Shown in pieces: positions 2,446-61,590 of a stretch of 64,000 bases of DNA. Position 1 is the first letter of the stretch, and every line of letters begins with the position of its first letter. Under the pieces are notes generated by a model, which was not told the origin of the DNA, searched no databases, and saw only the letters and a program-made list of their open reading frames with translations. The DNA comes from a virus, in the IMG/VR virus record IMGVR_UViG_3300036987_000083, positions 32,001 through 96,000 of that record; one strand, 5' to 3'. The translations under genes were made by a program, and so were the position numbers.

Positions 2446-2461
2446 GCGACCATGTGGTCGC
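2446..2461. repeat. 16-bp palindrome GCGACCA-NN-TGGTCGC
   Basis: GCGACCATGTGGTCGC. Confidence 0.95.
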
Positions 2462-2522
2462 GGGTGCCTGGGTAGGGCTACCGATGAGCTATAGGCCTGA
2501 GTAGCCCGAGCTACTTCCCGAG

Positions 2523-2594
2523 TGACCCCACCGGGATTCGAACCCGGATTCTCACCTTGAAAGGGTGGCGACCTAACCCTTAGTCGATGGGGCC
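2523..2594 (-). tRNA. trnE: tRNA-Glu(UUC)
   Basis: cloverleaf; loop CTTTCAA; TTCGAAT T-loop; no encoded CCA. Confidence 0.95.
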
Positions 2595-2687
2595 TTGCTG
2601 CTGTTTTTCTAGCATGAGGTGAGTAGAAGTACGAAGATTACGGGGGACCACGTCAACAGCGTTTCGATTACAACTTGTTTTGTCATA

Positions 2688-2759
2688 TAGACGCGGCTGG
2701 ATTCGAACCAGCGACCCGCTCCGTGTAAGGAAGCAGCTCTACCCCTGAGCTACGCGCCT
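2688..2759 (-). tRNA. trnV: tRNA-Val(UAC)
   Basis: cloverleaf; stem GCTTC/GGAGC, loop CTTACAC. Confidence 0.93.
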
Positions 2760-2760
2760 G

Positions 2761-2833
2761 TGGGACCGGTGGGACTCGAACCCACGACCCTCGGCTTAAA
2801 AGGCCGGTGCTCTACCACCTGAGCTACGATCCC
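2761..2833 (-). tRNA. trnK: tRNA-Lys(UUU)
   Basis: cloverleaf; loop CTTTTAA; 1 nt from tRNA-Val. Confidence 0.95.
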
Positions 2834-2920
2834 AAACAACAGGGGCGTGGGATATTACCTTTCGGATTGACTTCCCCAGTTTAAGCCCCGGATCAAACCC
2901 TGGAGCACCCCCTTTTCCGC

Positions 2921-3100
2921 TTAGCCGATATCCTCCACAAGGACAGTCTTCCGTCCCGCCGCCTTGGCTTTCTCCGCCGCCGCAGCGTAAATCCGTTCCA
3001 CCACCCGGCTGAGTTCCTCGATGGCTTCCGCCCCGGTACGAAGACCCTGGGCCTTCCCAAGGGCTTTCACTTTGCTAGTTACTACTAGAATTTCGGACAT
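2921..3100 (-). CDS. bacterial-type histone-fold protein (Bd0055/HBb-like), 59 aa
   Basis: MSEILVVTSKVK...AIEELSRVVE...AKAAGRKTVLVEDI, typical alpha2-L2-alpha3 RKTVxxxDI signature; AAGGA SD. Confidence 0.85.
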   Translation of the reverse strand: MSEILVVTSKVKALGKAQGLRTGAEAIEELSRVVERIYAAAAEKAKAAGRKTVLVEDIG

Positions 3101-3237
3101 GGGTTTTCCTTGTTGTACGGTTATGGACAAGAGCAGCCTACGTGATGAGCCCGCCAGTCGGGGCACCACGGTTTGTCGCCGCCATCCGGATGAGGGATAC
3201 CTTCTGCGGAGCGCTTAGTCAACCACAGTAGTTCTGA

Positions 3238-3432
3238 CTACTTGATTGGGTTCTCGTCTACATCCACGATGCGGAGACGGCGCTTACGCGCTACGCCTGC
3301 GGTAATGGCCTCCGAAGCGGTGTAGTCGCTGTGGCTGTGCTCCGTAAAGCACTCTTGGGTGCAGATGGCCTTCAGCCTTCCACCTTCGTACAGCCGCTCT
3401 CCGCACTCCTTCTTCTTGGTCGCGTCATCCAT
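3238..3432 (-). CDS. small Cys/His hypothetical protein, leaderless
   Basis: TTGACA-N18-TATGTA-N6-ATG. Confidence 0.7.
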   Translation of the reverse strand: MDDATKKKECGERLYEGGRLKAICTQECFTEHSHSDYTASEAITAGVARKRRLRIVDVDENPIK

Positions 3433-3477
3433 GCTCTGTACATAGCACGATGTACCTGCCGGTGTCAAGCGGCGGGA

Positions 3478-59062: not shown

Positions 59063-59323
59063 ATGAGCGATAGCAGCACCAGAAAAGCTATTAGTGTGAT
59101 TACGGCAGCCGTTGTTGCGGAAGCCGAGGGATGGAAGACGAGGGCACTCATCGCAGAGCAGGCGCTTCTGGCTTCTCAAGAGGAGAGTGCGCTGCTGCGA
59201 AGCATGCTGGCCCACACCAATAAGCTCTTGGATGCCCTCATGGCTGAGCGGGAGGCTTTTCTTGCGAGGCAGGCGTCTTCCCGGCCTTTCTGCGCTCCTG
59301 TACTGCCTTCCCAACTGTCCTGA
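59063..59323 (+). CDS. coiled-coil hypothetical protein
   Basis: GGGGG SD-like. Confidence 0.6.
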   Translation: MSDSSTRKAISVITAAVVAEAEGWKTRALIAEQALLASQEESALLRSMLAHTNKLLDALMAEREAFLARQASSRPFCAPVLPSQLS

Positions 59324-59575
59324 GAAGGCTACAACCAGCGCTGGGGTAGGACTATCTTTTTAGAAAAACAAAAAATTGCCCGCGTTGCGGGCTGCGCCCG
59401 CATGGGGCGCATTAAAAGAGGTTACTCGGCGCGGCTTACTGAGGGGTGGCCCCCAAACATTTGTGGGTGGATCTTGAGGACGGGACATGGACGACTTTGA
59501 TTTGAGGGCTTGGTGCGTTGCTGGCGGTTTGCGTGTGAATCTTGAAGCCCTTACTCCGAAGTTCGACGAGTGCCT

Positions 59576-60025
59576 ATGAGTGCCTCCGAGCCCATCAACG
59601 ATGAGTGGCTTCGCGACGTCAAGGGCTTGGCCTACAGGGACCAGGACGGCCCCCAAGTGGGGGTCAGTCGCGAGGGGCTAAAGCGAGTTTTGGCGCGGCT
59701 GGAGGCTGCCGAAACTGCCCACAGGGAGGCTGAGGCCGCCCTCGGAGAGCAAAAGCAGCCTCGAAGCGAGGGGAAGGGCCGTTCTGGTGGCAAAACCGCC
59801 TCAGAGGCCAAAGCAGCCTCCCTTTGGGAGGAATTCACGGTGTACGTAGAGACTCCTCATTTGCCGGGACACGCAGTTCCTATGTGCGGTTTGTGCGGTA
59901 ACACAGGAGTCTTCGATACCCGTGAAACAGCGAAGACTCCTGTGGGGAATGTTTCTTGCGGCGTTCGGGCGTACTGCATCTGCCCCAATGGGCGCTCTAT
60001 GAAAGCAGCCGGGGACCCTCTATGA
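59576..60025 (+). CDS. hypothetical protein with C-terminal Zn motif (CGLCGNTG...YCICPNG)
   Basis: ATGA overlap downstream. Confidence 0.7.
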   Translation: MSASEPINDEWLRDVKGLAYRDQDGPQVGVSREGLKRVLARLEAAETAHREAEAALGEQKQPRSEGKGRSGGKTASEAKAASLWEEFTVYVETPHLPGHAVPMCGLCGNTGVFDTRETAKTPVGNVSCGVRAYCICPNGRSMKAAGDPL

Positions 60026-60312
60026 GTAAGCGCTTCTGGCTGAGTTGGAATGAGCTAGCCAAGGACTACCGTCCGTTGAGTTACCCACCGAATTCTTGCA
60101 TCTTGGGGTGGTGGTGCACCGGCTACGACGACACCTCCTCCAGGATTTGCGCTTGGGTTACCGCTACGGACGAAGAAGCGGCCAAGGCTGCTGTCGCTTT
60201 GGATTGGCCGGGCGCCAAGGACTGGCGTTTCTGCGCAGAAGTGGGCAGAGACTGGGAGCCGAGTGACCGCTTTCCGTTGGCAGAGTGGACTAGGGCGCGG
60301 GTGAACCCTTGA
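60022..60312 (+). CDS. conserved Trp-rich phage hypothetical protein (RFW.SW...GWWCTG...WRF)
   Basis: recalled motif. Confidence 0.7.
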   Translation: MSKRFWLSWNELAKDYRPLSYPPNSCILGWWCTGYDDTSSRICAWVTATDEEAAKAAVALDWPGAKDWRFCAEVGRDWEPSDRFPLAEWTRARVNP

Positions 60313-60575
60313 AGGTTCAGAAACATATTATTACCCTCTCGGGCGAGGTCCCGTTTGAGATTGAGAGGGGCACTCTCATGCAGACGACTGACGGCACCTT
60401 CTTCAGGGTGACTCGGCGTGTTTCCACTAATTGCATCGAAGTCGCGCCTTACCGCTGGTATCACAGGCTTTGGAGACATCTGGCCCGGCTTCCGGGTTGG
60501 CTGCTTTTATGGGGAGCCTTAGCCCTTCTCTTGGCATTGGGAGGCGTTCTGCTTCCTGGCTGGTTAGGGCCATGA
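60309..60575 (+). CDS. protein with C-terminal transmembrane segment
   Basis: overlaps both neighbours. Confidence 0.55.
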   Translation: MKVQKHIITLSGEVPFEIERGTLMQTTDGTFFRVTRRVSTNCIEVAPYRWYHRLWRHLARLPGWLLLWGALALLLALGGVLLPGWLGP

Positions 60576-60799
60576 CGGAGTTGGCCGAGTTCAAAGAGAA
60601 GTTCAAGCCTTATGCGAGGCATCTGGGCTTTTGCTGTCGAGGCCTCCCTAGCGGGCTTCGCCCCTGTAACTGCGGTGTGTTCGAGTTGCTAGATGCGGTA
60701 GGGGAAGAGGAGTTGGAGAAGCGCAGGCGGTTCCCGGAGTTGGGGCCGTTCCCAAATGTCCCACGCATCCAAGCATGGGTGCTGAGTTGTGAACGATGA
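60572..60799 (+). CDS. small Cys/His protein
   Basis: ATGA overlaps. Confidence 0.6.
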   Translation: MTELAEFKEKFKPYARHLGFCCRGLPSGLRPCNCGVFELLDAVGEEELEKRRRFPELGPFPNVPRIQAWVLSCER

Positions 60800-61047
60800 C
60801 TAAGGTGAGGGCGAAGATGCGAGCTTCGGAGCTGTTTCAAGCGTATCGGCGTGGGTGGCGAGACGCGGCTGCTTCCAGTCTCCCTGACACTCGATTTACC
60901 GCGCACCCCACCCGGGAAGATCTCACTGCGGAGTACCGGCGAGGCTACACGGAGGGGCGCGCTAGTTACACTGCGGACATGAATGCAGCCATGAAGCGCC
61001 TTGGTTATGTTCCTACCCTTTTGAGAGACTCCGAGGCTAGCGCATGA
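60796..61047 (+). CDS. hypothetical protein (Y.RG..DA...Y.RGY.EG)
   Basis: ATGA overlaps. Confidence 0.65.
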   Translation: MTKVRAKMRASELFQAYRRGWRDAAASSLPDTRFTAHPTREDLTAEYRRGYTEGRASYTADMNAAMKRLGYVPTLLRDSEASA

Positions 61048-61340
61048 CTAAAACATTGGTAGAGCACCTAGAGGGTTACGATACTGGGTTCAACTGCGTG
61101 CACGGGCGCGCGTTTGACTGTGATCCTTGCATGGAGCGGCTGTCCAAGCGTCAGCGCGCGGATGCTGTGGAGCTGTCTAATTTGCGCGCCATCAACGCGC
61201 ACATGCGCGTCAAGCTTAATTTAATTGTGGAGGTGTGCTCCTGGGTTCGAAGCGAATCTGACCCCTTAGTGCGTGTGGGGATTTTGGCGTTGGACGCCCT
61301 TTCTCCTCGTTTTGAGGAAGTAGACACCCCTTCCCATTAG
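61044..61340 (+). CDS. hypothetical protein (CVHG...C..C)
   Basis: ATGA overlap. Confidence 0.65.
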   Translation: MTKTLVEHLEGYDTGFNCVHGRAFDCDPCMERLSKRQRADAVELSNLRAINAHMRVKLNLIVEVCSWVRSESDPLVRVGILALDALSPRFEEVDTPSH

Positions 61341-61524
61341 TGTTGTGCTACTCTTGCCCAGTCGCAGGTGGCATGAAGCTCCTGGTTACTGCTGTCCCCG
61401 TTTCCGCCAGGAAATAACAGCGACAGTTGCGGATACGCGCTACAGCGTGTATGCCGTAACCGGAAAGGGCTCCCGGGTGGCAGAGCCCACTTCTTTTTGA
61501 CGTCCCCTACCTTTTGAGGCACGG

Positions 61525-61567
61525 GCCGCCGGTCGGAGTCTCCCTCCCCTCAGACCGGCGGCTTTCT
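61525..61567 (+). terminator. intrinsic terminator
   Basis: GCCGCCGGTC/GACCGGCGGC stem plus TTTCT. Confidence 0.75.
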
Positions 61568-61574
61568 CATGTCT

Positions 61575-61590
61575 GCGACCATCTGGTCGC
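61575..61590. repeat. 16-bp palindrome just upstream of a plus-strand promoter
   Basis: GCGACCATCTGGTCGC. Confidence 0.95.

Follow-up and report, generated by a model that had tools for sequence, protein, structure and literature searches.

The window analyzed here, a stretch of 64,000 nucleotides, comprises bases 32001–96000 of a 179,489-bp viral contig (IMG/VR record IMGVR_UViG_3300036987_000083, 57.6% G+C, labelled G000), and it carries many dispersed copies of a 16-bp palindrome with the consensus GCGACCA-YR-TGGTCGC. The contig encodes a gp23-like capsid protein, a T4-like portal, a tail sheath and a terminase with an intein or HNH insert, and its completeness was estimated by CheckV at 88%. 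According to our own crude gene call, small minus-strand genes occupy 0–85 kb and plus-strand genes 85–179 kb. A megablast search of INPHARED returned no close phage, and there was no near relative among the deposited phages. The palindrome is a real, conserved and probably protein-bound DNA site at the borders of units, and a putative mechanism for it is proposed below.

When the window was searched with the pattern GCGACCANNTGGTCGC, 9 exact matches and 23 matches at ≤2 mismatches were found, as compared with 0.00 exact and 0.53 near matches in shuffled sequences. A preliminary description of this DNA had reported 22 copies, and the motif was present at every one of them (9 exact copies, 12 with one mismatch, and one, at 51946, with two). 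The 23rd match, with two mismatches at 28840, lies inside a gene and probably arose by chance. The same description had called for the genome-wide distribution; the motif spans the entire contig, with 48 copies at ≤2 mismatches, whose density is high over 1–97 kb and lower beyond. Coding sequence makes up 79% of the contig, yet 39 of the 42 good copies lie between genes (binomial 3e-23). The statement that all 22 copies are intergenic agreed with our gene call, in which the copy at 8184 overlaps just a doubtful 37-aa open reading frame (ORF). Closer relatives of the early arm (L263, L266 and L267) were recovered via two conserved proteins. The copies of the window are as follows, where the box is a second repeated motif considered later.

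2446..2461: exact; 60 nt downstream of a tRNA-Glu gene (minus strand), then the GAAAACTCCC box, then a TTGACA −35.
8184..8199: exact; in the minus-strand sense, followed by the box and then a −35.
9107..9122: one mismatch, at position 13 (T to A on the plus strand); then the box and a −35.
12061..12076: one mismatch, at position 4; between a tRNA-Ile gene and the start of a plus-strand island.
13997..14012: one mismatch, at position 1; at a convergent junction, 127 nt past a plus-strand island; syntenic with L263:10492.
16829..16844: one mismatch, at position 4; overlaps the TAG stop of gene 16844–17200 (minus strand), then a terminator-like hairpin; syntenic with L263:6994.
18343..18358: exact; after a minus-strand terminator, the box and TTCCACTA; at a convergent junction.
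21070..21085: exact; after an intrinsic terminator and the box, 9 nt upstream of a minus-strand TTGACA; syntenic with L263:5781.
24332..24347: exact; abuts the TAA stop of gene 24348–24926 (minus strand); syntenic with L263:2577.
28333..28348: one mismatch, at position 16; after a terminator and the box, 23 nt upstream of a −35.
31877..31892: exact, CG centre; 24 nt past the plus-strand island 30495–31852.
34615..34630: exact; after a strong terminator (34717–34684, minus strand) and the box, 12 nt upstream of a TTGACC −35.
36527..36542: one arm variant; abuts a TAA stop, then a hairpin; orthologous to L266:13545, where the variant is on the opposite arm.
39232..39247: one arm variant; abuts the TAA stop of gene 39248–39565 (minus strand), with a terminator (39228–39201, minus strand) directly after.
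41002..41017: one arm variant; abuts a TGA stop, with a terminator directly after; syntenic with L266:4763.
42398..42413: one mismatch, at position 1; abuts a TGA stop, then a terminator; the orthologous gene end of L266 has no copy.
44538..44553: exact; abuts a TAA stop, then the box.
46412..46427: one arm variant; overlaps a TAG stop; the orthologous gene end of L266 has no copy.
48799..48814: one arm variant; abuts a TAA stop, then a terminator, the box and a TTGACA promoter; syntenic with L266:344.
51284..51299: one mismatch, at position 13 (T to G); abuts a TAA stop, then a terminator, the box and a promoter.
51946..51961: two mismatches; abuts a TAA stop, then a terminator and the box.
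61575..61590: exact arms, with TC as the sole centre that is not Y-R; 3 nt upstream of a plus-strand TTGACA (61594–61599).

Eleven of the copies in the window had been described as touching a stop codon, and at all eleven (16829, 24332, 36527, 39232, 41002, 42398, 44538, 46412, 48799, 51284 and 51946) the distance to the upstream minus-strand stop was 0 or −1; one further copy upstream of the window had the same distance. The three plus-strand islands said to end at 13997, 18343 and 31877 do end before these copies but not flush with them, the distances being 127, 228 and 24 nt. Five layouts were distinguished. In the first (36–52 kb), a stop codon is followed by the palindrome, an intrinsic terminator, the GGGAGTTTTCC box and a TTGACA promoter. 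In the second, the order is terminator, box, TTCCAC and palindrome, with a −35 at 9–23 nt (e.g., 18343, 21070, 28333 and 34615), and the copy at contig position 1402 likewise lies between an intrinsic terminator and the next −35, 9–23 nt away. The palindrome precedes the box and a −35 in the third layout and a −35 at 3–11 nt in the fourth (e.g., 61575), while in the fifth, seen in late operons and in relatives, it follows a stop codon, and a ribosome-binding site comes within 12–20 nt. Across these layouts the palindrome therefore keeps no fixed phase to promoters or terminators, and the variable distances mark it as a unit that acts independently; no copy accompanies about half of the strong terminators at 34–53 kb.

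In the early arm there is about one copy per 2.4 kb, and the spacing was more even than a random choice of intergenic gaps would give (coefficient of variation 0.34 vs. 0.86, P ∼1e-4). The palindrome was found on both genome arms, including the late structural arm, as well as in the late operons of relatives, and copies adjoin tRNA genes. Three copies outside the window, at contig positions 25528, 26695 and 27234 (L002:5528–7249), are alike in the 35 nt that come after them (ctggacttcg...ggttccacggta); they enclose a ∼1.1-kb block of small genes, an arrangement that could be the footprint of a duplication or insertion.

To describe the variation of the site, 93 copies with ≤1 mismatch from 11 contigs were aligned. 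Positions 2, 3, 5, 6, 11, 12, 14 and 15 were invariant, and the changes were confined to positions 1/16 (19 copies) and 4/13 (14 copies, all but two being an A–T swap in one arm). The arm changes had been described as one-sided and never compensatory, and this held for the whole alignment, relatives included, with 0 compensatory changes in 93 copies; counted over a 6-bp stem, there were 0 compensatory changes and 14 broken A-U pairs, and shuffles equalled the real alignment. Relative to the sense strand, the arm variants were split about evenly between the 5′ and the 3′ arm. The central two nucleotides, which had been called variable, do vary, but only as Y-R (TG, CA, CG or TA) in 92 of the 93 copies, the TC at 61575 being the exception, so that each half-site reads GCG-W-CCA-Y and ends in a pyrimidine. 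On the sense strand of G000 the centre was biased (CA 23, TG 6), a bias that was not repeated in the relatives (10 to 7). Of the flanking positions, just an A at −1 was preferred in G000, and it was tied to stop codons. The DNA between a terminator and the next −35, where the copies of the second layout sit, is rarely transcribed. The absence of covariation, the even variation of the half-sites, the Y-R centre and the copies in rarely transcribed spacers together favour a duplex-DNA site for a symmetric dimer, as the preliminary description had preferred over an RNA hairpin.

Two observations on the arm variants may be added. The copies at 36527–36542 of the window and L266:13545–13560 have near-identical flanks and carry variants on opposite arms (A4/A13 here, T4/T13 in the relative), a difference of two substitutions within an otherwise invariant 16-mer. 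In the layout of stop codon, palindrome and terminator, a single arm variant at 4/13 was seen in 12 of 16 copies, and both arms were variant in none.

An entire family of large, uncultured phages of the T4 superfamily has kept the palindrome. When IMG/VR was scanned for exact matches, 102 loci were returned, and ten contigs (G001–G010) contained 3–11 copies each, with none for a reversed control pattern. All ten belong to one phage family, the capsid identity to this phage being 68–92%. Upstream of a scaffold-like gene, a syntenic copy was found in G000, G002, G004, G007 and G010, where the flanks do not align and the central dinucleotides are TA, TG, TA, CA and CG, respectively. The site is also conserved downstream of a tRNA gene and of several orthologous genes, and in the relatives most copies come after a stop codon and ahead of the following Shine-Dalgarno sequence, 12–20 nt before the start. 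The same 16-mer thus stays constant across a diverse uncultured family while its surroundings change, which implies a conserved binder and a general role in genome organisation or expression. In a scan of bacterial and archaeal genomes there were scattered single matches in unrelated taxa, with no sign of a host repeat or regulon among the matches listed. No copy was present in a 21-kb stretch of a 275-kb NCBI relative, and IMG/VR single-protein locus searches for two genes found nothing. The 16-mer was not found in the searchable literature, its 12-mer core being shared there only by Myc E-box oligonucleotides.

The best overall explanation, which we hold at even odds, is a duplex site bound by a dimer, for which a stoperator-like action is the most plausible job. 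A symmetric, dimeric, sequence-specific protein would bind the duplex, with the half-sites GCG-W-CCA-Y meeting at a flexible pyrimidine-purine step. The sites lie in non-coding DNA at the borders of genes or transcription units, flush with stop codons, ahead of terminators, 3–23 nt upstream of a −35 or in the gap between a stop codon and a ribosome-binding site. The bound protein would then stop RNA polymerase that runs on from the unit upstream, or lower the activity of the neighbouring early promoter, and as a result the units would be insulated or switched off at a set time. From the conservation, symmetry, position and family-wide spread described above we infer both the binding of a protein and its effect on transcription. 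That the palindrome is a protein site on DNA appears reasonably probable; a function as a roadblock or operator, the most plausible of the functions suggested earlier, is put forward tentatively. Taken further, a dedicated dimeric protein and evenly placed 16-bp sites (about 1 per 2.4 kb in the early arm) might divide the genomes of a family of large lytic T4-like phages into domains insulated from one another in transcription or topology. Such a viral insulator or stoperator would operate outside lysogeny, and its sites would travel at the edges of shuffled cassettes; this wider proposal is speculative and rather unlikely.

Several results weigh against a duplex site bound by a dimeric protein. 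The 312 predicted proteins were scanned with Pfam, targeted Pfam and PHROG scans were added, and six-frame searches were made for ParB_N, GcrA, HTH_3, HTH_38 and Sigma70_r4_2. The search for ParB, ribbon-helix-helix or helix-turn-helix genes elsewhere in the genome, which had been suggested as a check, turned up no ParB, ribbon-helix-helix or Xre-type regulator in Pfam scans of the 312 proteins and in the six-frame searches. Apart from a nuclease-linked one, no Xre-type helix-turn-helix was seen in six frames, the Pfam scans gave no repressor family, and no family-wide regulator was detected in the contig by Pfam, PHROG or six-frame searches. The few helix-turn-helix proteins on the contig are not shared with relatives. 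A replication module common to G001, G002, G005 and G010 is missing from this contig, which is ∼88% complete. In the early arm, even close relatives differ by gains and losses of copies, and L267, an 11.3-kb fragment of a close relative, has nine GGGAGTTTTC boxes and no copy of the palindrome, which L264 also seems to lack. Moreover, a perfect copy could form an RNA hairpin of 6 bp with a 4-nt loop (about −11 kcal/mol), and most copies are transcribed, so that the site may instead be recognised as RNA.

Three weak leads to a binder were noted. A MerR-like "transcriptional regulator" (L110:7509–8300) is conserved in G001, G002, G005 and G010 and absent from this contig. A small helical Arg-rich family, with paralogues at 32264–32611 and 39248–39565 of the window (both minus strand), has the motif TRTGI...ARRxxRA and four invariant arginines; it is 63–91% conserved in many metagenome contigs, is also found in G001, G002 and G005, and was predicted to be a three-helix bundle with no match in Pfam, PHROG or PDB and no lead from Atlas. 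The third lead is a sub-threshold winged-helix match in a conserved 1463-aa protein (L003:4095–8486). Outside the window, two paralogous helix-turn-helix proteins (L001:17306–17794 and L002:10339–10662, both minus strand) contain W-T-x-x-E...HTH units that recall GcrA or sigma region 4, and they were found only in this phage.

The first alternative is an RNA element, in which the hairpin, located in 3′ untranslated or intercistronic RNA, would be read by an RNA-binding protein or endoribonuclease and would serve processing, stability of RNA ends or tuning of the translation of the next gene. The folding energy of a perfect copy speaks for it, as do the position of most of the relatives' copies between a stop codon and the next Shine-Dalgarno sequence, the copies flanking tRNA genes and the preference of this phage for CA on the sense strand. 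Against this stand the lack of a single compensatory change in 93 copies, 14 of which would have mid-stem A-A or U-U mismatches, and the poor folding of variant copies (48799 is predicted to be unfolded in the centroid structure, and 39232 and 36527 to fold only as interrupted stems). Several copies lie in post-terminator spacers, the orientation bias was not reproduced in relatives, no Rfam family matches the palindrome, and an extra hairpin right ahead of a strong terminator hairpin has no obvious use. An RNA element is considered unlikely. The palindrome was also rejected as an intrinsic terminator: most copies have no following T run, and separate hairpins with T runs adjoin them.

The second alternative arises from the surroundings of the early-arm copies. 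The second motif, GGGAGTTTTC(C), occurs in 38 copies as compared with 4.5 expected, on both strands, from 2418 to 53171 of the window (e.g., 2418–2427 and 48735–48744). All its copies fall within 27–85 kb of the contig and precede a minus-strand TTGACA −35, often with GTGGAA/TTCCAC 7–9 nt off. The motif, which may serve as an activator or UP-like box, is present in L263, L266 and L267 and absent from G001–G010. An extended −35, cTTGACAAcggcag, is common to the early promoters (minus strand; e.g., 48711–48682 and 49531–49502), and 19 exact copies of TTGACAACGGCAG lie on the minus strand of the contig, as compared with 0 in G001–G010. Both the GGGAGTTTTCC box and the extended promoter are restricted to this phage and those nearest to it. 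In L263 and L266, which have five copies of the palindrome each, seven of these match copies of this phage at orthologous gene ends; at three gene ends (39232, 42398 and 46412) the site is present solely in this phage, and at two solely in a relative. The order of blocks in this phage differs from that in L263 and L266. At the few junctions examined, the homology of orthologous ORFs ends at the stop codon and a different module lies beyond, and at the one resolved junction the crossover was within the box/TTCCAC part, not the palindrome. Thus, in the early arm, the palindrome belongs to a shuffled terminator-promoter module that resembles the promoter-early stem-loop cassettes (PeSLs) of T4-type phages, and the earlier idea of a cassette applies to this larger intergenic module, not to the palindrome as such.

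On this basis, the palindrome might have no function of its own and be a passenger or short homology patch in a recombining PeSL-like module, or be a selfish miniature repeat that owes its spread to a nuclease or transposase. Its place within the repeated module, the altered block order, the change of module at stop codons, the gains and losses between close relatives, and the many homing nucleases and TnpB-like gene of the genome are all consistent with such a passenger. However, the GGGAGTTTTCC box and TTGACAACGGCAG were found here only in G000, L263, L266 and L267, whereas the palindrome is family-wide and strictly kept at syntenic late-operon sites whose flanks have diverged. The crossover at the resolved junction again lies outside it, and a 16-bp site is too short to drive homologous exchange alone. 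Neither a Y1 transposase nor an integrase, a resolvase or a tyrosine or serine recombinase was found in six-frame searches of the contig, so that a dedicated recombination core, as the preliminary description had offered, would be without its enzyme. A passenger seems improbable. As to the TnpB-like gene, a Cas12f1-like TNB domain was found among the proteins of contig 1–50 kb; the gene is probably the 587-aa L001:5592–7355 (minus strand), outside the window.

The remaining alternative, which we also regard as improbable, keeps a DNA site and gives it a job other than transcription, namely loading or nucleation of a genome-organising protein (ParB- or Noc-like), site-specific nicking, or control of replication or packaging; its length and CACGTG-type centre, which are those of chromosomal parS, its even spacing of about 2.4 kb in the early arm and its copies on both arms are countered by ∼45 dispersed copies unlike the few clustered parS sites, by the strong link to gene ends and promoters, and by the ParB N-terminal domain (PF02195), for which nothing was found in six frames of the contig at E ≤ 0.1 while control genomes matched. 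A ParB-like loading site, as earlier suggested, thus lacks a partner among the six-frame translations of the contig, and nothing supported the related idea that the sites serve the first-injected DNA, the motif being present in the late structural arm and in the late operons of relatives as well. Other candidates were rejected: a homing-nuclease target (the nuclease genes are not adjacent to copies), a late promoter (late-arm copies are too few and a palindrome gives no direction), an integron attC (there is no Phage_integrase domain, and the site is 16 bp and nearly perfect as compared with imperfect attC of 57–141 bp with extrahelical bases), and a REP/RAYT or IS200/IS605 hairpin (there is no Y1_Tnp domain and no fixed flanking tetranucleotide).

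Some other genes of the contig may be recorded. ADP-ribosylglycohydrolase and NADAR genes are present (window 34726–35817, minus strand, and L006:12752–13204, plus strand), and in the relative G002 the two are adjacent and flanked by two copies of the palindrome. A 329-aa protein (window 14828–15817, minus strand) with 73 metagenome homologues, some of them on contigs of 275–290 kb, has an N-terminal, zinc-ribbon-like DUF6011 motif; its confident AlphaFold model (pLDDT 90) had no convincing PDB match, and its C-terminal part is weakly like a HARP domain.

Dispersed dyad-symmetric sites have been reported, with function unknown, in a few groups of phages, and a role has been explained only for the stoperators linked to lysogeny. 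If the binder of the duplex site proposed here were found, it would provide a simple, portable site-protein pair, and metagenomic phage genomes could be read for the borders of their transcription units. The association of the palindrome with shuffled terminator-promoter modules broadens the modular evolution known from PeSLs to include a distant T4-like branch.

Among known systems, parS and the Noc-binding sites are 16-bp palindromes, with CACGTG as the centre of parS. The present site shares the length and the symmetry, but its arms are unrelated, its copy number, dispersion and linkage to gene ends differ, and no ParB-family protein was detected.

The PeSLs of T4-type phages are cassettes of a stem-loop and a promoter that undergo modular shuffling (PMC2839356, PMC4122927). 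As in these, a strong terminator and a sigma-70-like early promoter lie between small T4-like genes, and the modules recur and mark indels and rearrangements between relatives; the likeness applies to the module, not to the 16-mer alone. The palindrome is here an extra, separately conserved element, and unlike a PeSL it also occurs outside the modules, in late operons, at tRNA genes and in relatives that lack the module of this phage.

The stoperators of L5 and Cluster A phages are 13-bp, asymmetric, transcription-oriented sites bound by the monomeric immunity repressor of a temperate phage (PMC9283540, PMC6550527). Both kinds of site occur in many dispersed copies within short intergenic gaps near gene starts and stops, and for both a block to RNA polymerase elongation has been proposed. 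In contrast to stoperators, the site described here is palindromic and has no reproducible orientation, the centre ratio of 23 to 6 becoming 10 to 7 in relatives and the arm variants being even, and no repressor or integrase gene was found in the contig, which is 88% complete.

By analogy, the closest counterpart is the 17-bp dyad repeat of the Cluster O mycobacteriophages, TGTTCGG-NNN-CCGAACA, which occurs in >30 copies and is of unexplained function (PMC4351075); the likeness is in kind only, as the sequences and the phages are unrelated. Both have invariant 7-bp inverted arms around a variable centre and >30 copies that are denser in one arm and mostly intergenic. In both, orientation has no meaning, the phages are not obviously temperate and a dimeric binder is predicted. 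The spacer is 3 nt there and 2 nt here, and a Mycobacterium siphovirus is compared with a large T4-superfamily myovirus from metagenomes. About a third of the Cluster O sites are located in genes, whereas about 7% are here, and no link to rearrangements is seen in Cluster O, whereas the palindrome of this phage lies at the edges of shuffled modules and flush with stop codons.

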